Shown: positions 1,898 to 49,727 of the stretch, piece after piece
Layout: each line of letters opens with the position of its first letter
Position numbering within the stretch: position 1 is the stretch's first letter
Assembly (NCBI GenBank): GCA_026770705.1
Contig: JANJGN010000021.1
Span: 105,028,001-105,092,000 of the forward strand
Direction of reading: 5' to 3'
Source of the DNA: Isurus oxyrinchus
Lineage: Eukaryota
DNA length: 64,000 nucleotides
Program-made: the position numbers and the translations under genes
Notes under the pieces: model-generated
Seen by the model: the letters and a program-made list of their open reading frames with translations, nothing else
Databases searched by the model: none
Told to the model about the DNA's origin: nothing

Positions 1898-3276
1898 CTG
1901 TCATGAAAATATAATATTTCTCGTCATATTTTTGGGGTCTATTGTAAAGTAGGAATNNNNNNNNNNNNNNNNNNNNNNNNNNNNNNNNNNNNNNNNNNNN
2001 NNNNNNNNNNNNNNNNNNNNNNNNNNNNNNNNNNNNNNNNNNNNNNNNNNNNNNNNNNNNNNNNNNNNNNNNNNNNNNNNNNNNNNNNNNNNNNNNNNNN
2101 NNNNNNNNNNNNNNNNNNNNNNNNNNNNNNNNNNNNNNNNNNNNNNNGGCGGGGAGGTGAGTGGTCTGGGGTGGGGGGTGGTAGGGGTGGAGGAGTGGTG
2201 TTAGAATTTAACTGAATTAAAGAGAGCCAGTCTGAAGGTTTTGAAATATCAAAAGAGAAGCTAGGTTTGAAATGCTAAATAAGTAAACATGGCTGAATGT
2301 GTAAAGGAAAATTTGCATTTTTAGTTAAACCAGAGTAGTTTAATTTCAAAGGAGAGGGTGAAATATTTCACTTAGAAGAAGCCAAATAAAGTGTCAACTT
2401 TCCCTATGCCTACTGATATAGTTGGTGCTTTGAAATATTTTTGTTATTAGAAAGTTAAAGTCCAAAGACACTTTAGAAAGATGGGATTTACATTTAAAAG
2501 GGAGAAACATGTATAGAAAAGATGAGTTTCTGTGTAAGGAGAGGGCATTCTCAGATCTCAAAAGTGTGAAAAGACTACAGCCCCTCTATGCACCAAGCTG
2601 CTGCCTGTAGGAACCGAAGCTAAGAGAATTCACTGTGAATATTCATGTCCAGGGTATAGTGTGCTCTGCCTGGGTCTGTTGAAATCTATTTTGTTTTTAT
2701 TGTTGCCTTAGCGGGGGTGTTACTGGGAGCTTGATTAATTAGGGGAGCTAGGAGTTATCATACTAGCAATTTGTAGACCCATATAGACGTTTAAAATTAT
2801 TTCTTTTATTAATATTGTTTAATTTAATTTTGTAAACTCCCTCTAAGATTCGGTTGACTTATTATTACTGAATTCAAGGTCAGCACCTCTAATTAAAAGT
2901 GCAAATTGCAAAACAGTTGTGGCAGTTGTTTCACGTTTCCCTCTGGGATTTGGGCAGTTTAGACTTTGCTATCTGATGTAGTAAAATTACAAAATTGGCA
3001 GCCCTTTGGGGATATAATTGAAACTCCTTCTTGGTTTGGAGTTGGTGAATCTTAAGGTCACGAGCACTTTGAATTCAGGAGTTGGTGTGAGATTGTTTTT
3101 TGAAGTGGTGAGACTGCAATATCGCTTTGGCAGTTGCTAAGACTTGCTTGGGAGTTGAAGTTATAACTTTGGCTGATTTACGAAAGATAAACAAAGCTAA
3201 CTTAATGGAAATGGCAGATAAGTTACTATTAGAATTACCTGCAGGGGGAAGAAAATCAGACATAATTGAAGGTATA
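1898..3276 (+). mobile_element. Probable Gypsy-type LTR retrotransposon relic: LTR, decayed PBS region and start of gag
   Basis: Starts tgtcatg at a break in the CR1 sequence. A PBS-like ttggcagccc...gggat occurs near 2995. From about 3121 the frame reads IALAVAKTCLGVEVITLADLRKINKANLMEMADKLLLELPAGGRKSDIIEGIV, resembling the N-terminus of fish Gypsy gag. Truncated by the CR1 at 3277. Confidence 0.55.
1957..2147. other. Assembly gap (191 N)
   Basis: Run of N. Confidence 1.
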
Positions 3277-3693
3277 GTGGGTGAGCGTGTGGAATTTATT
3301 TAAAGCAGAGAGCGGGTGAGAGTGTGGACTTTATTTAAAACAGAGAGTGGGTGAGCGTGTGGACTTTATTTAAAATAGAGAGTGGTTAAACGTGTGGGCT
3401 TTATTTAAAACAGAGAGTGGGTAAGTGTGTGGACTTTATTTAAAACAGAGTAGGTGAGCATGTGGACATTATTTAAAGCAGAGATTGGGTGAGCGTGCTG
3501 ACTTTATTTAAAATAGAGAGTGGGTGAGCGTGTGGACTTAATTTAGAACAGAGAATGGGTGAGTATGTGGACTATATTTAAAACAGAGAATGCGTGGGCC
3601 TTTGGGCTTTATTTAAAGCAGAGAGTGTGTGAGCCTGTGGGCTTTATTTAAAACAGAGAGTATGTGAGCATGTGGACTTTATTTCAAATAGAG
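3277..3693 (+). repeat. Tandem array, about 12 x 35 bp (gtgggtgagcgtgtggactttatttaaaacagaga), probably the 5' UTR of the adjacent CR1
   Basis: Twelve diverged head-to-tail units with no unique spacers, directly upstream of the CR1 ORF1/ORF2 relics. Confidence 0.9.
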
Positions 3694-9928: not shown

Positions 9929-9986
9929 ATGCGATGTATACAGCGAATTGCTGTTGTACGACTGATTTTCTTTGCACTATGCACTG
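9929..9986 (+). CDS. Gene A exon 1: signal-peptide exon (MRCIQRIAVVRLIFFALCT+g)
   Basis: ATG at 9929, hydrophobic stretch, phase-1 donor G|GTGAGT at 9987. Same layout as the gene B leader. Confidence 0.7.
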
Positions 9987-11017
9987 GTGAGTTAACTTAT
10001 TCTCTCGAGCTAATTTTATACAATGCAGTGAACATCGCCGTAGCTTTCAATCAGACGTGTTAGCAATTTGGGAATTATTGGGGTCCCCTATTTTAACATT
10101 AATGTGGTTTGGCACTTTCTGCAAAACTTCAAATTTAACCTTAATAGATTGAATGCAAAACACCAACGTGCCAATACTTGATTCGATCACTACTTAGAGG
10201 TGCTTTACCTGCCGAGTTATCATAAAAGAATTGGCACCAGCATAATTGAAAAAAAAATCCTTCGTCAGCAACTCCTGCGTTGATTTCCAGTCAAATAGTA
10301 TCACTTCCATGGTTTTGTTGTTTTTAAGGTTCATGTATCGCTATTGTTATTATTAACAATGAACATTTAGGAAGAAACGTGCTCAGTGTAATGGGTAAAT
10401 TTCAATGCGCACTATTTGAACCTTGTCCTCCCTCCTCCGCCGGAAAATGGTGTCAGCTGAAGAGCTCACTAGATGCAAAATAAATGGGGCGTAAAATAAA
10501 TATGCCGAACCTTCGTTAAATAAGCCAATGCACTTAGCGAAGACATAAATTCAGCCAAAATCGTCCGAATCCGATTTCTGGTGCACCAAATTGGCAACAC
10601 GGAAGATTCCTAAAGTCAATCCCCTGTAGAAATATGCAGGTTTGACTCATTCTGCTTGGAAATTGTTGAGCACGAACCGGAAAGGATGATGCAAACTTTG
10701 CATTCCAATGTCTACGTTAGGAACCAGAGTAGAATTTTTGGAGGGCCACTTTTGAGGGTCCCATACTCACAAGGTAGCTTTAGCTAAACCAGGCGAATGC
10801 TGCCCCTGATTTTTCTGTCCATTAAAATTAAAGGCAGGAATACCTGGCGCGGTACAGACGCGGTTTCCGATAAGCCAGCCGCTGGTTCAAGGCCCTACTC
10901 TCTGGATAGCCGCGTGGAAGATTCTCCTTAAAGTCTCTGAACTTAAACTGATAAAGGCTCACCATTTTAACATTCAGCAAGCGAACCTAAAAATTGTTGT
11001 GTTGGGTTCTTTTGTAG

Positions 11018-11458
11018 ATTAGAGGTTTAGCTTTGAGCAGCTCAGTCTCCATTTTATTCAAGCATTGCTGCTGGGCGATTGGATCCTTCATTTGTCGGTT
11101 CCGAGAACACTAGGCCACCAGAAACCACCACCGCCTAAGAGCTGAGAGGGGCCAAATTACTGCGCCTTATCTGAGAACGAGGAACTATCCTTCATAATAA
11201 TAATAATAACCAGCTTCGGTTCAGAAGAGGTTATTATAAAAAAAATTCGGTGGCCACAATATTCATTCAATTTCATCCAGTACGCGTCCGTGACATGCAT
11301 GCGGTCATTTGTCACACTGCGTGTGTGGTCTGAGGCACCTGGAAGGTCTGCTGACAATGTACGTTAGTGGGATTCACCGGTGTAGAAGCCTACGGTACGA
11401 AGTTTGCATGAGGAAGGGGAGACCTGACCTTCGCCTGAGCGATATGAGGGACCAACAG
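11018..11458 (+). pseudogene. Gene A decayed Ig V-type exon
   Basis: Acceptor ttcttttgtag| at 11017 and donor cag|GTGAGG at 11459. The 5' part reads AQSPFYSSIAAGR/GSFICRF with a 1-nt frameshift and keeps the Q-to-Cys spacing of gene B. The 3' part reads LTMYVSGIHRC (compare D-S-G-x-Y-x-C) followed by a G-strand-like RKGRPDLRL. Internal stops and a (taa)n run. Confidence 0.55.
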
Positions 11459-12138
11459 GTGAGGCGCTTGTTTTGTGTTACTTAACTCCGCTCTTTTAAA
11501 GGAGACTTCATAACAATGATGAAGAGCCCGTGGCGGAAAGCAATTATATTCTGCGATAAACAGTTCCCAAAGGTTTCCAGCAGCATTGTAAAACTAATGT
11601 ACATTGCGATCAAGGCGAAATCATTCCCCAAGATTCCTGCAAGGCGACCCCAGAGTTCAGGAGTTTGAAACTTCAGAACGCCATTCTTACAATAACCATG
11701 TTAATGAATGCACGGCAGACAGTACCAGTTTCAAAAATTTACTTGGATAATATATAGTAATATATAATGTGTGTGTGTATGCGTGTAATTGATGTGCTAT
11801 ATTATATATATATTCATATATTTAATAAATACATAATATAACACAATCTCTCTATATATATTACATATAAAGTTTGTGTTTTTGTTGTTTTTTGACGGGA
11901 TATGGACATCGCTGGTTAGGCAGCATTTATTGTCCATCCCTAGTTGCCCTTGAAAAGGTGGAGATGAACAGCCATTTTGTACCGCTGCAAACCATGTGGT
12001 GTAGGTACACCCACAGTGCTGTTAGAGAGGGAGTCCTAGCGATAGTATATGTGCATGTGTGTGTGTGACTGTGTACCTGTGTGTGTGGCTGTGATTAGAA
12101 GCAGAACCGTTGTCACAGAAAACATTTACCATCTATAG

Positions 12139-12454
12139 GTATGTTCCTCTGGAAAATAAACAAAACAATATTCTCCTGCTCCCAGGGATGAGGAATGTCA
12201 CCCTGTTCATTGCATCACAGCTGTTAAAAATAACCCACCTTCCAATCACGGATCGATTACTGGCAAACCAGTGATTTGTTTGTGAGGTGAAGGGCTGCCG
12301 AAGAGAACATAATGGGCGAGTGTCGGGGAGAAGAGATGACACGATAACTAATAACTAATAACTTAGTTATGCAAACCTGGACTGTGACAGTCTGTCGTTT
12401 GAAGAAGGAAGGAAAAACAATGGAAAGTCCAAAACTGTCACTTGAATCAGAAAT
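12139..12454 (+). pseudogene. Possible second decayed Ig (C-type) exon of gene A
   Basis: Across frameshifts it reads GMRNVTLF/CITAVKNNPPS/DYWQT...NNLVMQTWTVTVCRL...SPKLSLE, flanked by ctatag| and |gtatgc. Weak support. Confidence 0.3.
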
Positions 12455-13659
12455 GTATGCCAATTATCCTACGGAGGGTTATTTCAACATCTGATTTAAG
12501 CAGTTCTCTGTTGGCTAGATCTGGGGCATTTCATAGTTTAAGCTAATGTGCAGAGCTGTAGGTTAAGATGAGAATTTATCTGATAATTTTGTTTAAGCGT
12601 TATCCGGAGCAGAGCTGCGATAACGCTTAGTACCAAGTTGGAACTGCAATTAATCTTATGTTCCTTTTGCACTTTTTAAATTCGTTCTTGGAATTTGCAG
12701 GGCCAGCATTTATTACCCATCTCTATTTGCCCTTGAAAATTTGGTGCTGCCTCGAGAGGGCGAATTTCAGCTATGTGGAGTGACCAGAGAGACTGAAATT
12801 ACCCTTCACAAGGCAGAGAACAACGAGGGAGGTTTAATCGAGGTGTTCAAAATTATGAGGGCCTTTGATAAAGAAAATAGGGGAATTTATTTTTCAAACA
12901 GCTGGTCGTTCTAGTATGGAACACAATGCATGAAAGGATGATAAAAGCAGGTTGAATGGTAGCTTTGGAAAAGAAATCCTGTAAATGAGTGGACAGGAAA
13001 CAGATGCTGATCTACGGAGGAAGAAAAGTGAGTGGTGCAAGCTGGATAATTACTTCAGAGAGCTGACACAGGCACGATGGGCCGAATGGCATCCTTTGCA
13101 TGATAGCCGTCTGACCAGGCAGGTACCGTAAATGGCTGCCAAATCTCGAGGGCCGTGCATTGTTAATTCCAAAGTAAAATTGTTTGGTTAGGCTGCTTTG
13201 TTTTGGCACAAAATATGACACTTCGAGGAATGGCTTTGAAGTTTTTTCTTCTGCAGAACCTCACTAGTTCAAAAAATAGTGGAGTGAACTCCTTCAGTCG
13301 ATTAAATTGTGATTAGTGAACAGAATCTTGATACAAAATGCGTGGATATCCGCGCCTGCCGTCCTGAACGTGACAGGCGGAAAGAGCCAAAATTTCATCC
13401 ATAGCAAACCATTATTAATTTAGCCTTTATATTTGTAAAATGGAACCAATATATCTGCGCTTATATATTTTAGACCAATAATTCACTAATGTTAAGATAA
13501 CATGGAGGATAGACACTAGCAGGATCTCCTCTCCCGATTGTCCACATCATTGATATACAATTGACTTATTCTGGATTATAACATTTATAGGAGGAATTTG
13601 AAATCAATGATCAGGTTCGCGTGCTATTTTTCAGTTCTATCCCTTTGTAACCGCAACAG

Positions 13660-13755
13660 GAAGCCAGACGGTGTTTGTAAAAGGAGCAATTAGCAGTCAA
13701 GCCAGAAGCGGTCACAAAGCAGGAAATTGCCAAAACAGCACTGTGGAATTTAAAG
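13660..13755 (+). CDS. Gene A stalk exon ((G)SQTVFVKGAISSQARSGHKAGNCQNSTVEFK)
   Basis: Acceptor caacag|, donor AAAG|GTCAGT, 96 nt, phase 1-1, open. Contains one Cys and an NST sequon. Confidence 0.55.
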
Positions 13756-15723
13756 GTCAGTAGTAATTTTTAAAAAATTATTAATAGTATGTATAATTAA
13801 AGTTAAGTAATTTCTCACTAAGATAAACGGCACAAAAATGCTGCACAGACCCCGGAGGATACATCTGCAAAGAGTAAGAGTAACATTTTACACAAGACAC
13901 GAACAATCCAATGAAACTCAAGTTGTTTAATAGCATTGGGCAGAGAGCAGCCAGTGGTGAGATATTTCAATCGCTGAGGCGTTAATGGTGACAAATAAAC
14001 GAATTCTAAACAGCACTTGATGTGGCACACTCCCAAAGCCCTCTCCCTCTTAACTTTCTTCCAAACACAGCTCTCCTTTTAATCTGACTTCAGTAAGACA
14101 CATGCTCACCAGGTTTTGCCCATTCCCTTTGCCGTTACCCTTTCTGACCCTGATCCACTTCAATGAGTTCCAGGCTGGACCTGATGCTAACGTGTCCTTT
14201 CACCCCAGTGCTATTTTTGGTATGGGCATCTCGTTTCTCCATTTTCCTATCACCCTTTCTCTGCCACTTGGTTTATCTCGATCTCTTCCTCAATAACTAT
14301 CAAAAACAAACTGGTAGTTTAATCCTCTACAATCTCAGCATATTTTCATCCACCTCCACGCCCCAACCCTCCCTCCTCCCCCCCATCCCCCCCCCACCCC
14401 CACACACACACACACAGTCTGAAGGCATTTCTATATTGTATCCTATCTTACCTAGAATCTTAAAGTTGACCGCCTTTCTTACTGTTATTTTGTGATCTCT
14501 TGTCCCTGCTTTCACAGTATTGCTAGGGCATCCCTTATCCCGATCCAGCATACGCCAACCTCCACCTTGTCAAGATTAACGTTTGACATTTCTGCCACCG
14601 TAAAGAGGCTCCCAGCAGCAAGAACTCCTTCGTTCTCATTTTAATTTCCGGAGATACGTGGGGTCTCTAAAACCTTTGCTCATTCTGCCACCACGCTTCA
14701 GTTGGCACTTAGCCCTTAGCATGTAACACCTGTTTACTAATTGCCCTGTTCAAACTCACGGCCGCTCATTCTGTGTTGGAACTGCCTCCGACAATTTACA
14801 ACACTGTGAAGCAGATTATTCTGTTTGTGTAACAAGATGTATTAGAATTTCTTAGCATGGTAATGGAACTTGCAATATTGTTCGGGGGTATGAAATGGAG
14901 ATAGGATCCAGACGCCCGTTACACTCAACACCTGATTTTACTTTCCATTGAAGTCAATGGAAGTGAAAATCAGACAGATTATTAATGAGCAGAATTCTCG
15001 ACATCGCCTGAGTTAATATCTCCCTCAGTGTTAAAATGACTCCTGGTGAGTATGGAAGGTGGGGAATAGTGCGTGCCTATTCCGCCCTATTCAACGCCCA
15101 TGGGCGTAACATCCAGCGGAGCTCTTTACGGCTGTTCACTTCTACCCGCCAGTCTTAGCTGTGCCCAAGTGCCTCTGTGTTACCTGGGCCCGTTGTAGTC
15201 CAGTAGCATCAGGTTTGAGGAACGGAGAAACTTGCCCAAATGTGCTCGACCTGCTGTGGTTGCTTCTGCACGGTGGTGACCGACTGCGGAGTTGGGTGAC
15301 TGCTTTGCTGAAAGTCATCATTCTTTCTCCAGACATGACCTTGGTCTTCAATTAGCTCGACTTCCCGACCCTGCTTCACCTCCACTTTTGCATTCAATGC
15401 GTTCTTCCAAGTTTGCCCAAGATACAGCTCCATTTACCTGGGGACACCGTGAAAGGCTGTGTCCTGAGCACTGGTCTTAGCTACCTTCCCAGCATCCTCT
15501 CGCCCGGTTTTCTTTAAAGAAAGTGATGTTGATGCAGGTTAACGTCTGAAAGTAGGGAGGGGAGGGGGGCGAGGTTTTGCTGATGGAACACAGTTCTGGC
15601 AGGAATACAAAGCTGGCTTCACTGAGTTGTGAATATTTATTCTTAATCCTGCTTAGAAACTGCTGTATTTCACTGATGTTTCAACATCAGTTAAAACCTC
15701 TGTGTTAATTCTGTTTATCGTAG

Positions 15724-15834
15724 GCCCCCTTAATGAAACCAAGAGCGGCATAACACCGGTTTTGCTGGCGGCGCTGGCGCTGATAATTGTGTTCATCGTA
15801 TTTCTGACAGTTCGAGTGATGCAGAGAAAAGGAG
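15724..15834 (+). CDS. Gene A transmembrane exon (GPLNETKSGITPVLLAALALIIVFIVFLTVRVMQRKG)
   Basis: Acceptor ctgtttatcgtag|, donor GAG|GTTTGT, 111 nt, phase 1-1. About 20 uncharged hydrophobic residues followed by basic stop-transfer residues. Confidence 0.8.
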
Positions 15835-16023
15835 GTTTGTCTTTTCGTTTTGAAGACGTTGTCGATGTAGTGTTAGTGTTTCTTAACCCGCGAGTATTTA
15901 TTTGGTAATATTTCCAAATGACTATGTTTTATTTGGGGGGCCTAATTCGAAGACTGTCTGACTATTCGAGACAGGCATCAACACGGCAGCAGTTTCTAAC
16001 ACAGCCTGGGTCTTTTCATATTC

Positions 16024-16335
16024 CTGTCAGCCTTGATTCAGTTGGTAGGGTACTCGCCTCGAAATCACAAGGTACCAGGTTCAAGTCCGGCTCCAGGTCT
16101 TACAGTGCACAAGTTAAGGCTGACCTTCAAGTGCAGTGCTGCAGGAGCTTTGCACTGTCGGGTTGTGCTGACATTCGGATGAGACGTTGAACCGATGCTC
16201 CATTAGTCTGCTCAGGGTGGAGGTAAAAGTACCCATTGCATTATTTGGGAGACGAGTAGAGGAGTTATCCCCGGTGTCCTGGACAATATTTATCATACCT
16301 AAATCAACATTAGGAAAAACAATTTGCCCAGACTT
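16024..16335 (+). mobile_element. DeuSINE-type SINE (SacSINE1-like)
   Basis: tRNA-like head (ggttcaagtcc B box) followed by the Deu domain: gtgcagtgctg...tgcactgtcgg...cggatgagacgttgaaccga...ccccggtgtcctggacaatatttat. Confidence 0.8.
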
Positions 16336-16659
16336 TCAAATGATGATGATATCAGTGAGAAGCAGGGCAGGGGTTACCGCTCAGTCACAGCACTTTGCTG
16401 CTGAATTGCAATATCATAGTGTAGTTGCTATCATTGAGAGGGTGAGAAGCAGAATTTGTTTATCTGCTTTACCTCTCTTTTGTTGGGTAGAATTAAATAG
16501 GAACGGAAGCCAGATAAATTGTTTTACCTGTTTTATATGCGATACGAGAAGAGACCATCCTTATTATTAACTAAACAGCTATGTTAAGGTCCTGTTGTAT
16601 AATGAACTTATTTTCTTCAGTGTCACATAACTGTGTTATTTCTATTCTTATTACCACAG

Positions 16660-16688
16660 ATTCCAGTGAAGAGCAGGCAAGGGCACAA
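16660..16688 (+). CDS. Gene A first cytoplasmic exon (DSSEEQARAQ)
   Basis: Strong acceptor ttctattcttattaccacag|, donor CAA|GTAAGA, phase 1-0, in frame with the TM exon. Later exons not identified with confidence. Confidence 0.7.
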
Positions 16689-17119
16689 GTAAGAACAATT
16701 AGGCACTTTACATATCAAATTATAAATGATCGAGGCTCAATTTTATGGTTCCAGGAGTTATAAATGAGCATAATTATGAATTGAGCAGTCTGAGATGGCT
16801 CTGCTATGGAGACAAGGAAACTTGTCTTTTATCATATATAGGTTATGCATGACTGTTTAATGCCTCATATGTTCTCAAAGGGGAAACTATTCCTTACATT
16901 GGTTATCTTCCAAAAGGAAAAGACGAATGTATTCCCCGTAGCACTTCCGAAAATTTATAAATGGGGTGTGTTTCACGGAAATACTCTCCTGTCCCGTGTA
17001 AGCACTGTTTGACAACATATTTGTGCCATTGGGATTTTATTAACTTATTTTGATTGAGACCTCGTAGAATGGTAGGGACACACCGATGCCTAAGCAGCAT
17101 CATAGTTGGTTTTTAAAAA

Positions 17120-17710
17120 ATCTTTCACGGGATGTGGGCGTCGCTGGCTAGGGTCGCATTTATTGCCCATCCCTGATTGCCCTTGAAAAGGTGGTGAGTG
17201 AGCTGCCATTCTGAACTGCTGCAGTCCATGTGGTGTAGGTGCATCCACAGTGCTGTTAGGGAGGGAGTTCCTAGACTTTGACCCAGCGACAGTGAAGACA
17301 CGACGCTATATTTCCAAGTCTGGATGGTGTGTGACTTTGAGCGGAACTTCCAGGTGGTGGCGTTCCCATGTATCTGCTGCCCTTGTCCTTCTACATTGTC
17401 GGAGTCACAGGTTTGGAAGGTGCTGTCGAAGGATACTTGCTGAGTTGCTGCAGTGCACCTTGCTGCCGTTGTGCATCGGTGCTAGAGGGAGTGAATGTTT
17501 AAGGTAGTGGATGGGGTGCCAATCAAGCGGGCGTCCTTATCCTGGTTGAAGTCGAGCTTCTTGAATGTTGTTGGAGCTGCACTCATCCAGGTAAGTAGAG
17601 GGTGTTCCATCACATTGTTACTTGTGTCTTGTAGATGATGACTCTTTGCTGAGTCAGGAGGCGAGTTACCCTCCGCAGGTTTCCCAGCCTCTGACCAGCC
17701 CTTGTAGCTA
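17120..17710 (-). mobile_element. Family B LINE 3' fragment
   Basis: Reverse complement matches the copy at 27800-28355. Confidence 0.85.
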
Positions 17711-18891
17711 CATAGTCACAGATGAACAAAGACTGAGCTTAAAAAATATTTCGGCGAGCGAGCGGTCAGGCATGATTCAGTAATTTCAGTCGTGCCACCA
17801 ATCCAAAGGTCTTTAAAGTGTGAATTAAATCAGGAGATAGTGCCACGAAAGTGGAATTTAATTCAGTGCCTATATCTTGTAAGGGAGCAGTTCAAGAACG
17901 GGAATTACATTTTTGGTGACTGTAATATTGTAATCCTTTTAGGAACTTCCTTGTAGTAATGTTGCTGAGGAGTCTCTGAGTTACGTCCAGTTGCAGGCCC
18001 ATAAAACGAGAAGGATGGACAGAATGATCGGGAACCTAGATTGCGTAATTTATGCCGCATGCTCTCCAAATCTCGGCGCCAATTCCTGTGAACTATGGAG
18101 GCAAGACAAGTTTTAAAGCTTGTGACCTTAGGCAGCAGTGCCGTCTGTACTGCACTCTTAACAAAGGACTTCAACGGCGTTAAAATTGGGTCAGAGCATA
18201 AAGGGGCTAGCGGTGTTCTGTTATATTGGAGCAGACCTCCTCTATGACCTGTTGTGTTCCATTAATAAGGTTACATCTCTGAAATCGTGCTCCGGAGAAC
18301 ATCTCAGAATTCCGCTGATTCGATTTTGAAAAATTTGTGATATAAAGACGCCTAATATGCGAATGTTCTATATAGCGAGCTTTCCTTGCTGAAAACTATT
18401 TGACAAACAGGGCAGCTTTTATTGTGAATATGAGGCATGATTCGCGCAGAGAGGTTCTAGGTGCAATTTTAATCCAGCCCGCCTGTTACAAGGCCGCTTT
18501 TACACCTGCTCGATTTTACCCTTCCTTGAAGGTAATGCAGCTTTATCTGCTTTGAAAATGTGATGGATTCAGCACCCGTGTTGTAACGCTCCAAACGTTT
18601 AACCACCTTTAAAATCGTTTCTATCTTGAAACGCTGTTCCAATCCTTCTCTTGCTGTGCCGTCATGAACCCATGTTATGAACGGAGTTTGCCATGATCTG
18701 GCTTCATTGGCAGGGTTGTAGTGAGATATATGGTGAGAACATATCACCACGTTACTCCCCATTTTTCTTTACCCATTAAAGTCATAATTCGGGGTTTTGA
18801 AAAGTTCCACTTCATATCGCCAAACTATTTTCAAATGCCGAATTACCTGGAAAAACTCAGCAGGTCTGGCAGCATCGGCGGAGAAGAAAAG

Positions 18892-18930
18892 AGTTGACGT
18901 TTCGAGTCCTCATGACCCTTCGACAGAACT
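18892..18930 (-). ncRNA. Second copy of the hammerhead motif in the inverted pLTR
   Basis: Exact reverse complement of 21209-21247. Confidence 0.7.
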
Positions 18931-19164
18931 TGATTTCGAGTCCAAGAAGGAGTTGAAATATAAGCTGGTTTAAGGTGTGTGTGTGTGTGTGTGGGGGGGG
19001 GGTGGGGGGGGGGGGGGGGGGGGGGCGGAGAGAGAGAGAGAGACAGAGGTGCTTGTGTAGACAAACAAGCAGTGATAGAAGCAGATCATCAAAAGATGTC
19101 AGTGACAATGGTACAAAAGAACACATAGGTGTTAAAGTTAAAGTTGGTGATATTATCTAAACGA

Positions 19165-20817
19165 ATGTGCCTCATCTCCTCTGGGGATCTCCCTCCCACA
19201 GCTTCCAACCTGATAGTCGGCCAACCTCGGACGGCCCGCTTCTATCTCCTACGTAAAATCCACAAACAGAACTGCCCCGGTAGACCGATCGTCTCAGCTT
19301 GCTCCTGCCCCACAGAACTCATTTCTCGTTATCTTGACTCCCTTCTCTCTCCCCTTGTCCAGTCCCTTCCCACCTACATCCGTGATTCCTCTGACACCTT
19401 ACGTCACATCAACAATTTCCAGTTCCCTGGCTCCAACCGCTTCCTCTTCACCATGGACGTCCAATCCCTCTACACCTCCATCCCCCACCAGGATGATCTG
19501 AGGGCCCTTAGCTTCTTCCTCGAACAGAGGCCCGAACAATCCCCATCCACCACTACTCTCCTCCGTCTGGCTGAACTTGTTCTCACGTTGAACAATTTCT
19601 CCTTCAACTCCTCTCACTTTCTCCAAATAAAAGGTGTGGCTATGGGTACCCGCATGGGCCCCAGCTATGCCTGTCTCTTTATGGGATATGTGGAACATTC
19701 CTTGTTGCAGTCCTACCCCGGCCCCCTTCCACAACTTTTTCTCCGGTACATCGATGATTACTTCGGTGCCGCTTCATGCTCTCGTCAGGACTTGGAAAAA
19801 TTTATTAATTTTGCTTCCAATCTCCACCCCTCCATCATTTTCACGTGGTCCATCTCTGACACTTCCCTTCCCTTCCTTGACCTCTCTGTCTCAATCTCTG
19901 GTGATAGACTGTCCACCAATATCCATTACAAACCCACCGACTCCCACAGCTACCTCGACTACAGCTCCTCACACCCCACTTCCTGTAAGGACTCCATCCC
20001 ATTCTCCCAGTTCCTTTGCCTTCGTCGCATCTGTTCCGATGATGCTACCTTCAAAAACGGTTCCTCTGACATGTCCTCCTTCTTCCTTAACCTAGGTTTT
20101 CCACCCACGGTCGTTGACAGGGCCCTCAACCGTGTCCAGCCCATCTCCCGTGCATCCGCCCTCACGCCTTCTCCTCCCTCCCAGAAACATGATAGGGTCC
20201 CCCTTGTCCTCACCTATCACCCCACCAGCCTCCGCATTCAAAGGATCATCCTCCGCCATTTCCGCCAACTCCAGCATGATGCCACCACCAAACACATCTT
20301 CCCTTCACCCCCCTTATCGGCATTCCGTAGGGATCGCTCCCTCCGGGATACCCTGGTCCACTCCTCCATCACCCCCTACTCCTCAACCCCCTCCTATGGC
20401 ACCACCCCATGCCCACGCAAAAGATGTAACACCTGCCCCTTCACTTCCTCTCTCCTCACCGTCCAAGGGCCCAAACACTCCTTTCAAGTGAAGCAGCATT
20501 TCACTTGCATTTCCCCCAACTTAGTCTACTGCATTCGTTGCTCCCAATGTGGTCTCCTCTACATTGGAGAGACCAAACGTAAACTGGGCGACCGCTTTGC
20601 AGAACACCTGCGGTCTGTCCGCAAGAATGACCCAAACCTCCCTGTCGCTTGCCATTTTAACACTCCACCCTGCTCTCTTGCCCACATGTCTGTCCTTGGC
20701 TTACTGCATTGTTCCAGTGAAGCCCAACGCAAACTGGAGGAACAACACCTCATCTTCCGACTAGGCACCTTACAGCCTTCCGGTCTGAATATTGAATTCA
20801 ATAACTTTAGGTCGTGA
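19165..20817 (+). CDS. Penelope reverse transcriptase + GIY-YIG endonuclease (N-terminally truncated, uninterrupted, 550 aa from the ATG at 19165)
   Basis: RT motifs FTMDVQSLYTSIP, GVAMGTRMGPSYA and LRYIDD; CxxxxCxxC linker; GIY-YIG NLVYCIRCSQCGLLYIGET...RFAEH...GLN. True element sequence starts at 19171; the ATG comes from the inverted pLTR. Confidence 0.93.
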   Translation: MCLISSGDLPPTASNLIVGQPRTARFYLLRKIHKQNCPGRPIVSACSCPTELISRYLDSLLSPLVQSLPTYIRDSSDTLRHINNFQFPGSNRFLFTMDVQSLYTSIPHQDDLRALSFFLEQRPEQSPSTTTLLRLAELVLTLNNFSFNSSHFLQIKGVAMGTRMGPSYACLFMGYVEHSLLQSYPGPLPQLFLRYIDDYFGAASCSRQDLEKFINFASNLHPSIIFTWSISDTSLPFLDLSVSISGDRLSTNIHYKPTDSHSYLDYSSSHPTSCKDSIPFSQFLCLRRICSDDATFKNGSSDMSSFFLNLGFPPTVVDRALNRVQPISRASALTPSPPSQKHDRVPLVLTYHPTSLRIQRIILRHFRQLQHDATTKHIFPSPPLSAFRRDRSLRDTLVHSSITPYSSTPSYGTTPCPRKRCNTCPFTSSLLTVQGPKHSFQVKQHFTCISPNLVYCIRCSQCGLLYIGETKRKLGDRFAEHLRSVRKNDPNLPVACHFNTPPCSLAHMSVLGLLHCSSEAQRKLEEQHLIFRLGTLQPSGLNIEFNNFRS

Positions 20818-21208
20818 GCTCCCTCCCCCATCCCCACCCCCTTTCTGTTTCCCCCTTTTTTCCCCTTTTTTTCCCTATAAATTTTATAGATTTTTCTTTT
20901 CCCACCTATTTCCATTATTTTTAAATATTTTAAAATCTTTTATGCACCCCCCACCCCCACTAGAGCTGTACCTTGAGTGCCCTACCATCCATTCTTAATT
21001 AGCACATTCGTTTAGATAATATCACCAACTTTAACTTTAACACCTATGTGTTCTTTTGTACCATTGTCACTGACATCTTTTGATGATCTGCTTCTATCAC
21101 TGCTTGTTTGTCTACACAAGCACCTCTGTCTCTCTCTCTCTCTCCGCCCCCCCCCCACACACACCTTAAACCAGCTTATATTTCAACTCCTTCTTGGACT
21201 CGAAATCA

Positions 21209-21247
21209 AGTTCTGTCGAAGGGTCATGAGGACTCGAAACGTCAACT
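21209..21247 (+). ncRNA. Minimal type I hammerhead ribozyme motif in the Penelope pLTR (variant core CUGUCGA)
   Basis: Stem I agtt/aact, core ctgtcga, stem II gggtc/gactc, GAAA, palindromic ACGT and a GTC cleavage triplet. Confidence 0.7.
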
Positions 21248-23559
21248 CTTTTCTTCTCCGCCGATGCTGCCAGACCTGCTGAGTTTTTCCAGGTAATTCT
21301 GTTTTTGTTTTGGATTTCCAGCATCCGCAGTTTTCTTTGTTTTTATTTTCAAATGCCTACTGATGTCCTTGGCGGGTTCGTTTGCCTAAAGTCTGTTTAA
21401 AGGAGCATAGGAAACAGGGGCAGGCTTAGACCATACGGCCCCTCAAACTTAATCCGTCATTCAATAGGATTATAAAATCTGGTATCATCAGCATTTTCTC
21501 TCTTGATCCCCACAAACATTGGATTGTAAGAATGTATTGGTCTAACCTTGTATATACTCAATGACCTCTAGAGGCCCCAGCACTTTGAGTGAATACATTT
21601 ATCCTTACCTGATTGCTGAATGGCCGACACCTCATCACGAGACGAAGCCAGCTAATGCTAGACTCTCCAACCAGGGGTAACCGTCCCTCAGCAACTACCC
21701 TAAAAATATCCCCCAGAATCGAATATGTTTCAACAGGACGACATTGCGTCAGTCTATATATTTATATATAAAATATAGACATATATATAGATAGATTATA
21801 TAGACATTTACATATATTCATACATAGGACCACCTTTTCATCCCAGGAATGAAACCAGTAAACCTAATTGCATGCGTATGCATAAAGACTCTACAATCTA
21901 GTCCCGAAAACCCTGAACGAGCGGATCTTTACAGATGCTCAATGACGTTTCCACAAAAAATTGACACCAGACCAACACGCCTGAGAAATTCCTGAAATCC
22001 AACTGCTCAAAATTTAGGTTTGTTTCGTTTCAAATCATTTTACAGATATTAACATTTAGGTTTAATACTGGCGGCTAAGCGATGAAATGTGTTAACTGAC
22101 CAGCGGGTTACAGCACTGGATTAGGTTATCGCTATCATGCTACCTGGAGACAATATGTCGTCCGCGGCCATGTGGCACATCTTAATCCTCCCTCTGTGTG
22201 TGCCTTAGCTGTTGTGGGCACTGCGTATAGGGTAGAGACGGCAGGGCATTAATGTCCCCTTACAGGCCTTCCAGAATACAAGCCAGATTGTTTGGTAATA
22301 CCATTATTGCCAAACCGAGGCGGAACATCGACAAGTCCTTCAATCGCACGCTTGCGGCGCGCCAGAGATTGGAGGAGCGTTTCCTTGTTAAGATCTGTGT
22401 GAGCATAACAAGTGTTGTCATAGTTTCAACCACGAGCAATCAAACAGTGGTGTTACATGTGCTGTAAAAATTTTTGCAACCGAATGCTGTTATGATTAAT
22501 AGTCTAACATGTCTCTGAGAAACAAAATAATGACAAATGAATGACCCGGGTCAAAGGCTTTACTGAAATAAACATAAATATTATTTAAACCAATCGCCTC
22601 ATGATAATGACCTCGCATCTAGACAAAAGCTCCCTGCAGATTGAACTAATTCCTCCAAGTTATCTTGAAGAACGATTTAACCAGTGGGTGCAAGAGATCA
22701 ACGGCAGGTTTTACAATGTAAATTTGCAGAGCTCAAGCGGGAACTTGAAGGGATTATTCCGTGCATCTGAAACGAAACTGTGCAGTTCTTCATTCATAAC
22801 GCTGCCCTGGCGGCAACTTTACCATAGATACAGCCCTCTCACATCACATGACTCAGAGTGCTAGGAATGTATTAACCTTAATCCACATGAAGTATTGTCT
22901 GGTAATGCACAGTGGCGGGGATTTTTAGGGTGGGGGTGGTTTCCATCCCGCCAACTGAAGAGTCGACGGGGAACACATCCCCATCCATACTGCCTGCCCC
23001 TGCAGCCATTTAATGCTTCAACAAGCGTTAATTGATTTGGTGATGGGCCTTCACTCGGAAGGAAATCTGATTGACCAGCAGTTCTCTAGCCCCTGTAGCG
23101 CCAGAAGTCGTAGTGGACAGGACTGGGACTGCAAGCAGCTCCTCGAGTTTAAGCCTGAGGAATCCGAGATCAAGTAAGTTTTGGGGGTCTTCAGGTGAGA
23201 TGGGTAGGTGAGGCGTACGGGTGGGGAGCTGGTGTGTTGGTCTGTGGGTGGAAATCCGTGGAGGGAGGGCTTGCGGCACCCGACGTTAAAAGTCCCTACT
23301 GATGGAGGCGGCACCCACCACCACCTCCACCCAACCCGCCCCCGCGCTTCCTGCCTGAGGCCTGTAAATGGGTTATGAGCTGAACTTTACGCTCCATGAG
23401 TTGGAGCAATCCCCACTTGCTCAAGCGGGTTATGTGGCGTGATGGCATTAGGCACTGTTCCCGACTTCATCATGCCAGTGTCACATAATACCATGCTTGG
23501 GCAATCAAAAAGTCGAGAACTTGCCCACATTATTCAAACATCCAATTAATTTTTTTATC

Positions 23560-40507: not shown

Positions 40508-40568
40508 ATGGTGGCAGAACAGTGCGCAACAACCGTTCTTTTCCTTCTGATTTCAATTTGTACAACGG
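40508..40568 (+). CDS. Gene B exon 1: signal peptide (MVAEQCATTVLFLLISICTT+g)
   Basis: Kozak-like acaATGg, hydrophobic core, phase-1 donor G|GTAAGT. Confidence 0.85.
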
Positions 40569-43530
40569 GTAAGTCACGCTCTGATTGTTTAAATACTACA
40601 AGGAAGTTAATCAGACTAAGTGGACAGTGGAAACAGTGGAATGCATTTCTGAAATACTGGAGAAGCATACCTTAATAAGTTCCTATATTGTCTAGAACGA
40701 AGGCAGAAATACCATACCAGTTCCAGCATTAGTTGTGGTATGTTTTTAACTAAAGACAAGCACCAACTTGTGTTTAGCATCATGATTATTTTTTTAACTT
40801 AAGTTTTGCAAAGCATTACCAGCGATGGTACACAAACCCAGGCATCTGGTGGTAACAGTTCAAATGAACATTGGGCTCGTAGTAAGCTAATATTTTTCAC
40901 GCGGTGCCATTGTATATCTTAATATATTTGAAATGTTGGCATGTATCAAATGATTAAACCACATTTCACTGATCTGATTTCCTGCTTGTTCGCTAAAGAC
41001 ATGCCTTACTAACGTGGAACCAAAAAAAAACACAATTGCCAGCAAGTTTGTTAACGGGTCTGTGGTCGCTGCAAATAATATATCCAACATAGTAACTGCC
41101 GAGTCATTTAGCCCACTAACCCACAATATTCTCTCGGCGCATTTCTGTTATTCCTGAATCCTAATTGTTGCCAAGGTCTTTCTAGCTCCACTACCTTTGC
41201 CAGTGAAATGTTACACCGTTATTACCACCCATAATAAATAAGACCTTCCCGCATTCCCTATTTTTTCTGCTGTATTTAAGCTGTAAATATCCTAAAGCCC
41301 TGTAACCGACAAACTAACTGACTCTATTTTGCCAAATTCTTTTATAATTTTATATCATTCTACAATATACCCTTTTAGATATTCTTGTTAATAAAGCCGC
41401 AAGGTTATCTATATTTCCTCACAAGCCATTCCCTTAAATTCAGGAATTAAGTGCAGCTCTTTTCTGTACCTCTTCCGAAGACTGGATACCCTGTTTGAAA
41501 TAGTGACACACGCAAGACTCAAGCTATAGTCTCGCCAGGGCCAGATATAGTTTTAAAATCTAGAATTACTCGTGGAATTCCTCGTGAAATGCAGCCAAAT
41601 TGATGCATACTTTACATAAAGGATTGCTGTAAATTTTTTCATTCATCAGAAGTTACACCTTCTAACAATCATTTGCTCTAGCATTTGTGTTTAGCTTCAA
41701 GATACTTTTAAATGGAAGATTTACAAAGCGCTGCCAGTGATATTACCGAGTTTTATCTAATTTCAGTCGTCTGTTGGTAACAGTTCAATTCAACTTTGGA
41801 CACTAATGAGTTGGCATTTTTGGAATTAATACATGGTGTCATTGCAGATCTATAGCAATGTTGTTGCAAAACCAGCCAGTACAATCACAGAATTGTTTAA
41901 TCCGAAAATATATGCAGCCAAATGTACACAGTTGGGAATAATAGCCATAATGCTTTGTTGCTTTTCGTGCAGTCAGAAATCTTACAGAAACAAATTTCGG
42001 GTAGCGATCAGAGTAATATGTTTTGCTTGTTAATTGAATACATGCTGTTCATAATATTTGCTTAATAAATCTACAAATTTATAATTTTCACACTCTTTCC
42101 AACCCTGTAGACATTAACATCAGCAAATTACTCTAGGGAATTTAGGGGAACACTACAAATGAAGCTTTCTTATGTGTGAATACATTAAAATGATTTTTTA
42201 TATGCCACATCCGATATATTTATAGATAGCTGCTGTTTTCTTTGAGGTGAGCAGCCGAAGGAAAATGCGCGACACCAAATAGGGTTAGGGCCCAAGATTA
42301 TAATATTTAAATCTAGGAAGTAAATGAAATTCAATTATTTCTGGGAATGGTGTGCAAAGGGCGTCCTTGATGGAAGTCCAACTCAGTGCTTTTGTGTAAT
42401 TTATATGTATGTACGTACGTATGTATATATATATATGTATATATATATATATGATTCGTTCAACCTTAAATGAAAACATACGTTTTATGTTTACAAGAGC
42501 AAGAGGCATGCGACTCCAATATATGAAGAACGTTTCAAATAGGCTCACAAATTAATCTTAACGGCCATATTTTCCTCCATTACTTTATTTTCTGATATTT
42601 GCTTGACACATGAAATTCGATAATTGTGTTCCATCAGATCACTGCAAATACTTGTGTCAATGTTTTAATTTCCCCGAATTTAAGTTATGGGCAGCTTTCA
42701 ATGATTTATTGTACATCTTATAGCTTATCCTCGCATTACCACAACATCACAACATATTAATAGCGAACGCCAGCATCTCAGTCCATGCTGGCGCTGTGCA
42801 TTAAAGAAACGCATTTTTAAAATAATTCCCTCACTATGAAATCAGGCATCCGTAGATATTATATAAGGGTAAAAATGTATTGAATTTATTTATTGCTCCA
42901 TAATGTCAATGAGGCAATAAAGGATTCGGTACTGTCTTTTTTATTTTCTCTTTTCATCCTTTTCTCTTTCTATTTTACATTCTCTCTTTCCTTCTCTAAC
43001 ACTTTATTTTCTGCCCTTTTTATCATTTATATAAGAACTTATTTTGGAATTAATGAAAGCATACTGTGGAATTAAAACAAAGTGTAGCTCGAGGCTGCAT
43101 GATAAAACAATGAACTTGCATTCAGAATTGCATCTTTTGCAACTCAAAGGCTTCTCAAGCTGTTTCTAGGTCAGTGAATGACTGAATCCAGTCTTTGTTG
43201 TTCGATATGCCAATGTGCCAAATCTTTTGGCCATAGCGTTTGATAAATAGCTCACAGGTTTTTCCTTGCTTTTTCTGTACACTGTATTTTCGCTACTGCA
43301 CCCATTGCACTTTTTGTACTTTAGGAACAAATAACATTCTCTTATTTACTGTATTAAAGCCATCTTTGAATAATGCCTTGAAATGCATGCTTAGAACCTA
43401 CAGCTGTTTGGGTCATAGACGGCAGTGCCACAAATAAATCAAGACAGTACTGGCACACGGTACATAATGCACAATACTTTACCCAGTCACAATGGCTAAT
43501 TAATGCTTGTGTTTCTTTGTGCACCACTAG

Positions 43531-43857
43531 ATATAGAGGCTGCGACTCCTTCCATAGTGCAATCTCCTGCTTCAGTTCATATATTTGAAGGTGGCAGTGT
43601 GACTTTGAATTGCACCTTTCGCTTAACAGGGTTGGGAACCTACAGCTGGAGAAGGGATGACAGTCCCATGGACTTGCAATCTGCGAGATATAAGGAAAGA
43701 ATTATGAAAGCGGACCATGACGCTTTCAGTTCGAGGAAGGATGCATCCATTCAAATTAAGAATATGACACAATGCGAATCTGGTACTTATTACTGTGAGA
43801 TTGAAATAATGGGGAAACAGAAGCTTACAGGCAGTGGAACTTTGGTTACCGTACAGC
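43531..43857 (+). CDS. Gene B exon 2: germline-joined VJ-type Ig V domain (NKp30/NCR3-like)
   Basis: Acceptor ccactag|, donor C|GTAAGG, 327 nt, phase 1-1. Motifs VQSP, VTLNC, YSW, ASIQI, ESGTYYC and the J-like TGSGTLVTV all lie in one exon. Confidence 0.93.
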
Positions 43858-44176
43858 GTAAGGAACCCTGAACATTGCCATGCTATTTCGCAATTTGAAA
43901 TTTTCCATCATCCTTTTCTTCATGCTTTTGTTATTCTGCTTCTTTGCAGCTCTCCCTCTGTCGCTGCTTTTTTCTTCCTTCTCACTCTCTCTGCCCATGG
44001 GTGTTTCTATTTCAGTCTCTCCCCATGTCCAGCTTGTCCGTATGTCTTTGCCTTTCTCCCTATGTTCCTGCCTACCTATCCATTTCTAGCCATGTCCCTT
44101 TATATCGCTTCTTTCTTTGCTGCTGCTCTTTCTACGGATTTAAGAAGAAATAACTTATTTTTCTTTCTTTCTACAG

Positions 44177-44311
44177 ATGCTTGTAACAAACAAGGCTCTT
44201 TAAAAAAACATCCATTTGATTGGATGTGGGTTGCAGTGGCAGGGGGAGTCACGTTGCTGGTTACTCTGGCACTGCTGGTGGTGATAATAGTTCTTGCTCG
44301 ACGAAACAAAG
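44177..44311 (+). CDS. Gene B exon 3: stalk + transmembrane ((H)ACNKQGSLKKHPFDWMWVAVAGGVTLLVTLALLVVIIVLARRNK)
   Basis: Long pyrimidine tract with ctacag|, donor AAAG|GTATTT, 135 nt, phase 1-1. Confidence 0.92.
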
Positions 44312-44529
44312 GTATTTTAAATATTTACAATGGTAGCCATGCCATGAAATAATCATTGCTTCTATCTCATGCCTCACAATACCAAAATATCATTACAATA
44401 CAATATATATTTTAGTAAATTCGAAGCGAATGCTAAATATGTGTTACATTTTGCAATGATACAGATTTTCTTTTACATTTGGGGCGTGTGAACAGTTTTG
44501 GCCTCCATATTAGAAAAAAAGGCATATTG

Positions 44530-45200
44530 CTACGTCTTCTTACCATGTCCACGGACAGTCTATACATGGCCCAGCTAGAACTGGACATATTTTTGCAACT
44601 TGTTGTTGAATTCGGCAAGATCTGCAACAGTGCAGGGTTCCTCCAGCGATAGGCATTGCAGGAGATGTTGGATGGTCTGTGGCTCAGTTCCACATTCACA
44701 AGTTGTGGGGCTGGTTGTACATCCCCATTTGCTTAGTGACACATTTGAACGACCTACACCAGTCCTAAGTCTGTTAAGGCACTTCCAGGTTGCCCAGTCG
44801 CAATTAGCTCCTGGGGGAAGGCTTTCATACGGTAGAATTTCCATCGCTGGGGGTTATTCGAGACTGGCAAGCTGGTCTTTCCACAAGGCGATGCGGGCTT
44901 CAGATGGGGTTGATTGTAATAGGCCAACCCTGTTCATGAAGCTCTTCCTTGACTTTAGGTGGCTGGGTGTAGGTGAATGGCCTCTCATCTGATGTTTGAC
45001 AGAGTCGCTCTTTCTTGCTGGCTGCCATTCTTCTTATATGAGGGGGAGCGATACCCACCAGGATATATAGGCTGTTGATGTTTGTTGGTTTTAAACAACC
45101 TGTGACGGCATCCATCTTCTTAGCATGAGTAGATCTTTCCCATGCAGGGCAGGCGTATTCGGCAGTGGAATACGAATGCCACTGCAGAATGTTCAAGAAA
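44530..45200 (-). mobile_element. Vingi/Ingi-like non-LTR retrotransposon 3' fragment in gene B intron 3
   Basis: Minus ORFs YSTAEYACPAW...VTGCLKPT...GIAPPHIRR and WKCLNRLRTGVGR...KWG...CECG..QTIQHLLQC (C-terminal CCHC knuckle), then a very short 3' UTR. Confidence 0.8.
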
Positions 45201-45577
45201 AAGATTTCCTAGGGATGATGCCAGGACCTAGAAGTTATTTCATTACACTTCATGAGTGCTGTGCCCAAAGGCTCATTTTCTGCTGATTCTTCATCCTGAG
45301 TCGTTTTCTTGGTAGTTTTTCTTTGTGCCAATGATGGTTTGCCATTGCCTTCAACTCCCAGGGTTAGGATGAAGAGGCAGGTCCCAAGTCTACCTCAGCC
45401 GGAAGTGCAAACAAATCCCCTTTGTTGGTGCCATCCTGGAACATACTATCTAGCCACCTGAGCTAACCAGTCCCCCTTAGAAATTATATTTCTTAGGAAA
45501 GATTGAAGAGGCCGGGGCTGTTTTCTGTAGTGAACAAAATACTTAAGGGCTACCACGATTTTAATATTATAGAGATA

Positions 45578-45790
45578 CGATGGCGTAGTGGTAATATCAT
45601 TGGACAAGTGATCCAAAGGCCCACACTAATGCTCTAGATCCAAATCTCACCATGCCAGCGGGTGGAATTTATATTCAATTAATATATCCAGTGAATAAAT
45701 AAAGCTAGTCTCAACAATTATGATCATGAAACTATCACCGATTGTAATATTGAGCCATTAGTATAAACTGGTCACTAATTCATTAGTGAA
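45578..45790 (+). mobile_element. tRNA-derived SINE 5' fragment
   Basis: A box tggcgtagtgg; body homologous to the minus copy at 46085-46450. Confidence 0.7.
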
Positions 45791-46084
45791 TTCGTGTGAA
45801 ACCACTTTACTCAGAGAGTGGTTAAAATGTGGAGCTTGTACCACAATATGTAGTTAAACCAACTAGCATAGAGACATTTAAGGGGAAGCTAGAGAAAAAC
45901 ACAAGAGACAAGAAACAAAATACAAGAACATGTTGATCGGATTAGATGAGGAAGGGTTTGAAGAGGCTTTATGGAACATACATAACAGCATGAAACTGTT
46001 GGGTTGCATGGCTTGTTTCTGCGCTTTAACTACCATGCAATTTTCAAACTCGCATGCTTTTTTTTATAAAAAAACCCAAATATT

Positions 46085-46450
46085 ATTTCATGGGATGTGG
46101 TTGTCACTGGCAAGGACAGCATTTGTTGCCCCTTCATAATTGCCCTTAAACTGCTAGGCCATTTCAGAGGGCAGTTAAGAGTCAACCACATTGCTATGGG
46201 ACTGGAGTCACATATGTAGGCCAGACCAGGTAAGGGTGGCAGATTTCCTTCCCTAAAATATATTGGTGGGCCAGATGGGTTTTTACAACAACCATTGATA
46301 GTTTCATGGTCACCATTATTGTGCCTAGCTTTCAACTCCAGACTTATTATTAATTCAATTTAAATTCCACCAGCTGCTGAGCTGCCATGGTGGGATATGA
46401 ATGCATTAGCCTGGGCCTCTGGATTGCTAGTCCAATGACATTAGTACTAT
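46085..46450 (-). mobile_element. tRNA-derived SINE sharing its 3' tail with LINE family B
   Basis: Reverse complement ends aagggcaatt...gggcaacaaatgctg...cacatcccatgaa, the same tail as the family B LINE copies. Confidence 0.75.
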
Positions 46451-46810
46451 GCTAGTATCAATGTGCTGAGGCACCTTTTGTTTTTCAGGGAAAAATAAGA
46501 CGTAGGATAATGTGTACATTTGTCTTAATAATGTAACGTGATACCAGCAGCCTATTTACAAGGAAAATTGAGGGAAATAAAGAACATATTTTAGGGACAT
46601 TAGACATTGTGAATCGTTATGTTGATTCACTATTCATAACAATAACGGCATTTAAAATAAGCCCACTTCAGCAGAGATGCATGAACATTTAGTGGATTTT
46701 CATAATTTTAAGAGATTGTATTGTATTCAATAAGTTATATTGATATTTTAATCGTCCATATCAATGACAGTATTAACCACAATTATGTTTAATCATTTTC
46801 TTATTTACAG

Positions 46811-49694: not shown

Positions 49695-49727
49695 GTAAAC
49701 GCGTGTCCGTCTATTTGGCTGCATGTA

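Follow-up and report, generated by a model that had tools for sequence, protein, structure and literature searches.

Can an immune receptor gene lose its immunoglobulin (Ig) domain and carry on as a membrane adaptor? In adaptors such as LST1 and SIT there is no extracellular domain from which descent could be traced. The question is raised by a gene at positions 9929 to 18116 of a 64,000-nucleotide (nt) stretch from the shark Isurus oxyrinchus (contig JANJGN010000021.1, 105,028,001 to 105,092,000, forward strand; here, the window). Made from the letters alone, the original prediction held that this gene had lost its Ig exons, among them a decayed V-like exon at 11018-11458, and had kept its leader, stalk, transmembrane (TM), and tail exons in frame. 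An Ig-less frame is indeed present. The proposed route fell away, since no dead exon is skipped and there is no stalk exon: judging from its alignments, the supposed stalk (13660-13755) is the variable-joining (V-J) exon itself, shortened in frame. The reading that we favor, and consider moderately probable, is that this collapsed gene of the NCR3 family encodes a live, ligand-blind inhibitory transmembrane adaptor working like LST1 or SIT.

Exon anatomy and the collapsed V-J exon

The features of the collapsed gene are as follows.
9929..9986, + strand: leader exon, 58 nt, phase-1 donor
11018..11458, + strand: intron stretch bounded by a good AG and GT, treated as intron
13626..13659, + strand: codons of the V exon that once specified strands A-A', now likely polypyrimidine tract and acceptor
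13660..13755, + strand: collapsed V-J exon, 96 nt, in which the beginning of strand B runs in frame into strand G
15724..15834, + strand: TM exon, 111 nt, with a short spacer, a TM helix without charged residue, a basic stop-transfer, and the second sequon
16660..16688, + strand: first tail exon, 29 nt, phase 1 to 0
17943..18116, + strand: final coding exon, 57 codons to TAA, with the immunoreceptor tyrosine-based inhibitory motif (hereafter, ITIM) LSYVQL (Tyr112) and the degenerate second motif VIYAAC (Tyr135)

The first four exons are open; with GT/AG at their ends and compatible phases, they join as foreseen into a frame of 98 residues; the end of the gene, with its tyrosine motifs, had been missed. 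The last exon of two paralogues aligned from 17943 on (DNA alignment score 50; 0 of 2000 null windows), revealing an exon that an ungapped peptide scan had overlooked and for which a loose tblastn search for tail exons gave noise only. Its acceptor has phase 0, as the 29-nt exon demands, and a 4-base insertion and a 1-base deletion relative to the paralogues, 13 bases apart, cancel and restore the frame. The hypothesis had already been set when this exon came to light, and its frame runs open through both tyrosines. All five exons form a 155-codon open frame in which the ATG, all eight splice dinucleotides, the TM segment, and the ITIM are intact. The ITIM consensus is (I/V/L/S)xYxx(L/V), which LSYVQL fits and from which VIYAAC has degenerated. 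The TM and final exons are each single copy in the source genome; attribution of the TM and tail exons to the upstream V gene was ruled out, because there the V is followed after 1.5 kb by a TM exon belonging to that gene.

Short exons can stay open by chance, a caution raised with the original prediction, but homology to family members accounts for the exons and splice sites here. Position 9929..9986 was the best match of three paralogue leaders within 9000-40400 (scores of 52 to 66 versus a mean of ∼24), and 12 of 19 leader residues are identical to a protein of the sevengill shark Heptranchias (P0162; see below). The Arg in the leader core, listed as a caveat with the original prediction, does not count as damage: it occupies a place held by His in the orthologue and Gln in a paralogue. 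The first tail exon is homologous to a 29-nt tail exon of two paralogues and was aligned to the orthologue tails, while the TM exon shares 18 of 24 and 17 of 24 residues with the two orthologues. The donor and acceptor of the V exon are likewise homologous to those of the family.

The family consists of shark NCR3/NKp30-like V-J receptor genes clustered in tandem, and the collapsed gene is one of them. The V exon of an intact downstream gene (43531-43857) had 21 matches in the source genome, all on the same contig (C21), with 11 at 104.87-105.27 Mb surrounding the window and the other 10 at 100.3-101.0 Mb; the 390 kb around the window taken for analysis contains 11 true V exons. The V exon of the nearest upstream gene was 72 to 81% identical to seven proteins from sharks; two of these bear the name natural cytotoxicity triggering receptor 3 or NCR3-like, and named relatives include Ginglymostoma QTT61901.1 and Heterodontus XP_067865596.1. 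In a paralogue tree, the canonical copies of the source genome fell among galeomorph sharks (86% bootstrap). NCR3 has been described as a V-J gene linked to the major histocompatibility complex (MHC; PMC12227049).

Both ends of the supposed stalk exon matched V exons of this cluster. Positions 13626-13693 aligned to the codons for strands A, A', and B in the three paralogues nearest upstream, the first 61 bases ungapped and in frame (5' end match: 0 of 1000 null windows for each paralogue), and positions 13716-13784 aligned to the end of strand G, the donor, and the intron start of the same three (3, 0, and 4 of 1000 null windows). The other 18 V exons gave a single near match (5' end; 3 of 1000). 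Between the two matched ends, ∼200 nt covering strands C to F are missing in frame, and the middle 65 nt are of ambiguous origin on DNA (matches to the D-strand region: 25 and 110 of 1000 null windows). All four V marks (B-strand Cys, C-strand Trp, F-strand Cys, and G-x-G-T) are missing or replaced; the B-strand Cys is now Gly, and the exon has one new Cys and one N-glycan sequon. Pfam gave no match on 13617-13754, and V profile searches returned no further V exon in the gene body. In a relative about 2% diverged (organism B), the V-J exon has the same length and the deletion is present. Contigs of organism B from two studies cross the site without a gap, ruling out an assembly error as cause of the deletion and placing it before the split between the source genome (A) and organism B.

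The 11018-11458 stretch, by contrast with a true V exon, showed no V similarity above chance and was ruled out as a V exon by five tests. It is closed in every frame (5 to 9 stops per frame). With stops read as X, none of its three frames matched Pfam, and profiles of 21 cluster V exons found nothing there by nhmmer or hmmsearch, whereas all 11 true V exons of the region exceeded 85 bits. Its frameshift-aware score of 11.9 was equaled by 76 of 150 random genomic windows (a true V exon scored 136), its score against a profile of the orthologues' V was equaled by 16 of 200, and among 21 pairwise DNA tests the strongest result was 6 of 500. A faint IFI..RD..C spacing is at chance level. An AG..GT pair as strong as this one is expected 0.09 times per 3.6-kb intron. 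In organism B the stretch has four indel differences and is closed as well.

On the predicted splice form, the protein would have a 19-residue leader, a ∼41-residue ectodomain that contains Cys43 and has sequons at 45 and 55, a TM segment without charge, and a tail. It is thus predicted to be a type I membrane protein that descends from an Ig receptor and has no Ig domain; its ectodomain would be short and glycosylated, with a single Cys, and its tail would carry an ITIM. The gene shares with shark NCR3/NKp30-like receptors its cluster, leader, phase-1 exon layout, and two-tyrosine tail; it differs in having no V core, no A-A' strands, a distinct TM segment, and no 19- and 29-nt tail exons, and it stands at a synonymous divergence (dS) of ∼1 from the nearest intact paralogues. 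Homology of the leader, V ends, and tail exons, together with its position in the cluster, places its descent in this family, whose intact non-rearranging V-J domain it does not have. By sequence, the gene is an NCR3-family derivative that falls outside the family on the V domain. Without a V core, its protein is unlikely to bind B7-H6.

Orthologues in sevengill shark and sawshark

We searched a profile of six canonical NCR3 proteins against 1.84 billion representatives and compared 161 proteins with the spliced product. The best were P0014 (E = 4e-15) and P0015 (E = 2e-8), followed by a protein at 3e-4. P0014 comes from the sawshark Pristiophorus japonicus (UniRef100_UPI00398E9DB9); its first half is the orthologue, and the model runs on into the orthologue of the window's next gene, giving it the same downstream neighbor. 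P0015 comes from the sevengill shark Heptranchias perlo, for which P0162 is a longer isoform (XP_067830066.1/XP_067830067.1, uncharacterized). Word-based protein searches with the TM frame (45 to 2000 residues) returned nothing, although the orthologues are in the same collection, so this blank is no proof of absence in other sharks.

The original prediction had proposed to seek an intact Ig version in related sharks, and both orthologue models have a V core. They keep the B-strand Cys, the C-strand Trp, and the F-strand Cys within a D-x-x-x-Y-Y-C motif, whereas the collapsed gene has no V core. In the Heptranchias models the leader joins straight to ESQSVTL, which corresponds to an acceptor equivalent to 13660, and in the sawshark model the boundary lies at the same place. 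Because the orthologues share this acceptor and keep the V core, the acceptor at 13660, originally chosen by eye, is the conserved one, and the V core was lost in this lineage only. The tail layout is shared too, the 19- and 29-nt tail exons of canonical genes being absent from both orthologues and from the collapsed gene. Tyr112 and Tyr135 both align with tyrosines of P0162 and P0014, and the Tyr-x-Gln-Leu of the first ITIM is common to the collapsed gene and both orthologues. In a tree of TM and tail, the three group apart from the canonical NCR3 clade (100% bootstrap). We have thereby established the anatomy of the gene, the homology of each exon, its orthology, the deletion, and the presence of the deletion in a second species.

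The V exon of P0162, P0015, and P0014 begins at strand B, without strands A-A', and keeps the core Cys-Trp-Cys. Pfam V-set matched P0162 at E = 9e-4, a match that falls short of the cutoff. An alignment-based model of P0162 (predicted local distance difference test [pLDDT] of 68) matched the NKp30 structure 3noi (rank 3, E = 2.3e-6); however, it borrows leader residues 20-24 as a strand, so folding of the A-less domain alone is not demonstrated by it. A single-sequence fold of P0162 was unsuccessful (pLDDT of 51).

These comparisons suggest a history in three steps. The gene would have arisen by duplication from the canonical NCR3 subfamily (dS of ∼1). In an ancestor shared with the sevengill shark and sawshark, the acceptor would then have moved into the V exon, with loss of strands A-A' and of the two small tail exons. 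Finally, the V core would have been deleted in the present lineage. An exon-by-exon alignment can be made of the parent gene, the intermediate (the orthologues, whose V exon begins at strand B), and the end state without an Ig domain.

Selection, divergence, and splicing

Survival of the frame leads us to infer expression of the gene and selection that continues to act on it. Four sequencing runs presumed to be RNA yielded no contig over the exons searched, a blank that, with no control gene alongside, carries no weight on expression. Of the residues on which the two orthologues agree, 6 of 18 persist in the V remnant, 17 of 23 in the TM segment (Fisher P = 0.013), and 14 of 28 in the tail. 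Taken as neutral decay, the 6 of 18 in the V remnant corresponds to 0.35 to 0.49 substitutions per site since release from the fold (95% range of 0.10 to 0.9, by baseline). We simulated such decay in 3000 runs, with an indel-to-substitution ratio of 0.13 (from the A-B differences) or 0.05 and survival counted to the second tyrosine. The frame, ATG, and splice sites survived in 1 or 33 of the 3000 runs at 0.10, the lowest divergence estimate, and in none of 3000 at 0.20. These counts argue against the possibility that the deletion killed the gene at once and left an ordinary pseudogene of a birth-and-death cluster, open by chance. So do the final exon, which lay outside the first selection and is open too, and the TM changes, which remain hydrophobic (all 5 in the 18-residue TM core versus P0162; expected 54% per change). 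Immediate death would fit the turnover of the cluster (a V exon in L015 has a stop) and the selection of the window for an open-looking frame, and the deletion may be recent if the remnant alignment overstates divergence; nevertheless, we consider it very improbable.

Several observations weigh against a live adaptor. The orthologues are computed gene models, and the divergence estimate rests on 18 residues aligned over a deletion with an ambiguous middle. The TM-plus-tail branch of the collapsed gene measures 0.93, compared to 0.14 to 0.22 for the orthologues and ∼0.6 for a canonical paralogue of the source genome. The second tyrosine motif is without its +3 Val/Ile. Comparison with organism B covered 265 exon bases (leader, V-J, and TM exons). 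Lesions or neutral divergence in sister species had been named as evidence against the original prediction: no indel or splice change was found in the three exons, but all four differences are nonsynonymous (Ala8Val, Ser46Asn, Ile73Thr, and Lys87Arg), and at 1.5% they are almost as dense as changes in the flanks (1.8%). The likelihood of this 4:0 pattern is 0.060 at a nonsynonymous-to-synonymous rate ratio (omega) of 1, 0.024 at 0.5, and 0.002 at 0.2, favoring omega of ∼1 over 0.2 by ∼30-fold. Over the A-B distance (0.01 to 0.02), neutral survival of the frame is common (644 to 1859 of 3000 runs).

The same data, with no synonymous difference to organism B at near-neutral density, would be expected if the gene had long functioned without a sound V domain and had recently died or begun to drift, its frame being open for lack of time. 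The degenerate second motif, a competing out-of-frame acceptor, and a young retroelement 0.7 kb past the stop codon also fit such a recent death. However, two intact paralogues (nonsynonymous divergence [dN] of 0.10, dS of 0.13) likewise have a dN/dS near 0.8, over which the 4:0 pattern hardly favors omega of ∼1; the pattern therefore does not discriminate between a live and a dying gene. Neither does the dN/dS of the collapsed gene against the paralogues. With the ATG, eight splice dinucleotides, TM segment, and ITIM all intact, we regard recent death as doubtful, and a dead or dying gene of either kind as unlikely, if somewhat less so. If dead, the gene is an unusual but minor pseudogene in a fast-turning cluster.

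Splicing bears on a further alternative. The out-of-frame acceptor at 13635, which leads to an early stop, outscored 13660 (7.2 versus 5.3, with a simple matrix of our own), another point against the favored reading. Acceptors at 13591 and 13594 were ruled out by in-frame stops; that at 13615 leaves an open frame but scored 1.3 and is not the acceptor of the orthologue models. A gene that is expressed in another role, its stub serving as lectin ligand or decoy partner of intact NCR3, or its transcript being mainly targeted for decay via 13635, would be consistent with these acceptor scores, with the single canonical ITIM, and with the missing membrane-adjacent Cys of LST1. The remnant behind 13660 is also more diverged from the paralogues than the part ahead of it, which would fit selection on a new surface. 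Yet the Tyr-x-Gln-Leu of the first motif is conserved in all three genes, and the TM segment has no charged residue for an activating partner, making such a role improbable in our view.

LST1, SIT, and the surrounding genes

If the gene is a live inhibitory adaptor, as we favor, its leader would be cut off, and the ∼41-residue ectodomain with its two N-glycans and one Cys may form a disulfide-linked homodimer. A Src-family kinase would phosphorylate Tyr112, SHP-1 or SHP-2 would be recruited, and the phosphatase would damp nearby antigen- or natural killer (NK)-receptor signals without ligand binding, as for LST1 and SIT.

The SIT-like plan of a short glycosylated one-Cys ectodomain, proposed originally, stands and has gained an ITIM tail, but LST1 is as near as SIT. 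On the predicted splice form, the protein combines a short ectodomain without folded domain, a single TM segment, and an ITIM-type motif, with Cys43 and sequons 45 and 55 as candidate dimer and N-glycan sites. LST1, as described, is an adaptor of 97 residues that has a very short ectodomain and carries a Cys for dimer formation, a site of palmitoylation, and two ITIMs binding SHP-1 and SHP-2 (PMC8111073). With this protein of the mammalian MHC class III region, the collapsed protein shares, as far as described, the short one-Cys ectodomain, an N-glycan site (in mouse), the single TM segment, and two ITIM-type tyrosines. It differs in its predicted cleaved leader, longer ectodomain, and degenerate second motif; moreover, the palmitoylation Cys right behind the TM segment of LST1 is not found, the first tail Cys being residue 102, ∼20 residues behind the TM segment. 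SIT is reported to possess a leader and an ITIM that binds SHP-2, and its ectodomain to consist of 18 residues with a single Cys and a single sequon (PMC2193021). SIT (SIT1) thus shares with the collapsed protein, by that description, a leader, a short glycosylated ectodomain with one Cys beside a sequon, and an ITIM; it differs in the length of that ectodomain and in having five tyrosine motifs in 136 residues, and the likeness is one of architecture only.

The single exons of the collapsed gene gave no Pfam LST1 or SIT match, and the orthologues and subfamily gave no SIT match. For two of the six canonical shark NCR3 proteins, TM and tail matched Pfam LST1 below the cutoff (E = 0.027 and 0.069); weak TM-driven matches to SIT and Calcyon occur at similar E-values for other proteins, so the LST1 matches are not proof. 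The subthreshold matches (P0008 residues 151-219 and P0012 residues 155-216) span nearly the whole profile. By Atlas feature score, C1orf162 and LST1 were nearest to the orthologue's TM and tail (0.79 to 0.81; LST1, 0.79), a lead only. On present evidence, the collapsed gene is not a member of the LST1 or SIT family by descent, and because it arose within sharks it is not an LST1 orthologue.

NCR3 and LST1 are direct neighbors. LST1 appears, as described, to have been gained in eutherians, in an MHC class III region where NCR3 is found too (PMC1654159). The locus may record how an LST1-type adaptor is born from an NCR3 receptor, by acceptor shift, V core deletion, and gain of a dimer Cys, with mammalian LST1 having arisen independently in like manner from an inhibitory NCR3 copy; we think this rather unlikely. 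Literature titles and abstract beginnings, among the papers listed, reported no Ig-less shark NCR3 gene and no NCR3 origin of LST1, but Kinlein 2021, Ohta 2019, Flajnik 2012, or their supplements could describe the gene. If expressed, the collapsed gene would be a testable natural example of a receptor turned ligand-blind inhibitory adaptor and would give a concrete hypothesis for LST1.

Elsewhere in the window lie the following features.
18832-21307: retroelement, open 562-codon frame, reverse transcriptase and weak GIY-YIG matches, inverted ends 89% identical
40508-56118, + strand: intact downstream NCR3-like gene, with leader 40508-40568, V-J exon of 327 nt at 43531-43857, and TM exon 44177-44311
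46811-46829, 46950-46984, and 49651-49694, + strand: small tail exons of the downstream NCR3-like gene, with candidates further on

The retroelement, which we take to be Penelope-like from its domain pair, is the one that begins 0.7 kb past the stop codon of the collapsed gene; the first ATTAAA (18775) lies just ahead of it. The downstream gene is similar to Pristis P0101 and to the latter half of P0014, and two intact upstream paralogues have full frames of 240 and 239 codons. At L039 (C21:105011055, 17 kb upstream of the window), the V exon shares 90% identity with its counterpart in the gene at 104.93 Mb, a similarity limited to ∼390 nt; the TM and tail exons differ, and no exon other than V aligns. 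Gene conversion or exon shuffling is the likely cause, judged from these alignments. A second cluster of the same family, with 10 V-J exons, lies at C21 100.3-101.0 Mb (L004 to L019), its V exons being closely spaced at 100.851-100.857 Mb; one V exon, in L015, is degenerate, with stops. Within introns of the downstream gene, 49728-50596 and 53725-53988 contain a ∼240-nt inverted repeat pair, 91% identical, and a ∼265-nt self-complementary stretch, both probably small DNA elements. A tandem array with units of ∼35 nt (length by eye), ∼82% alike, occupies 3259-3693.

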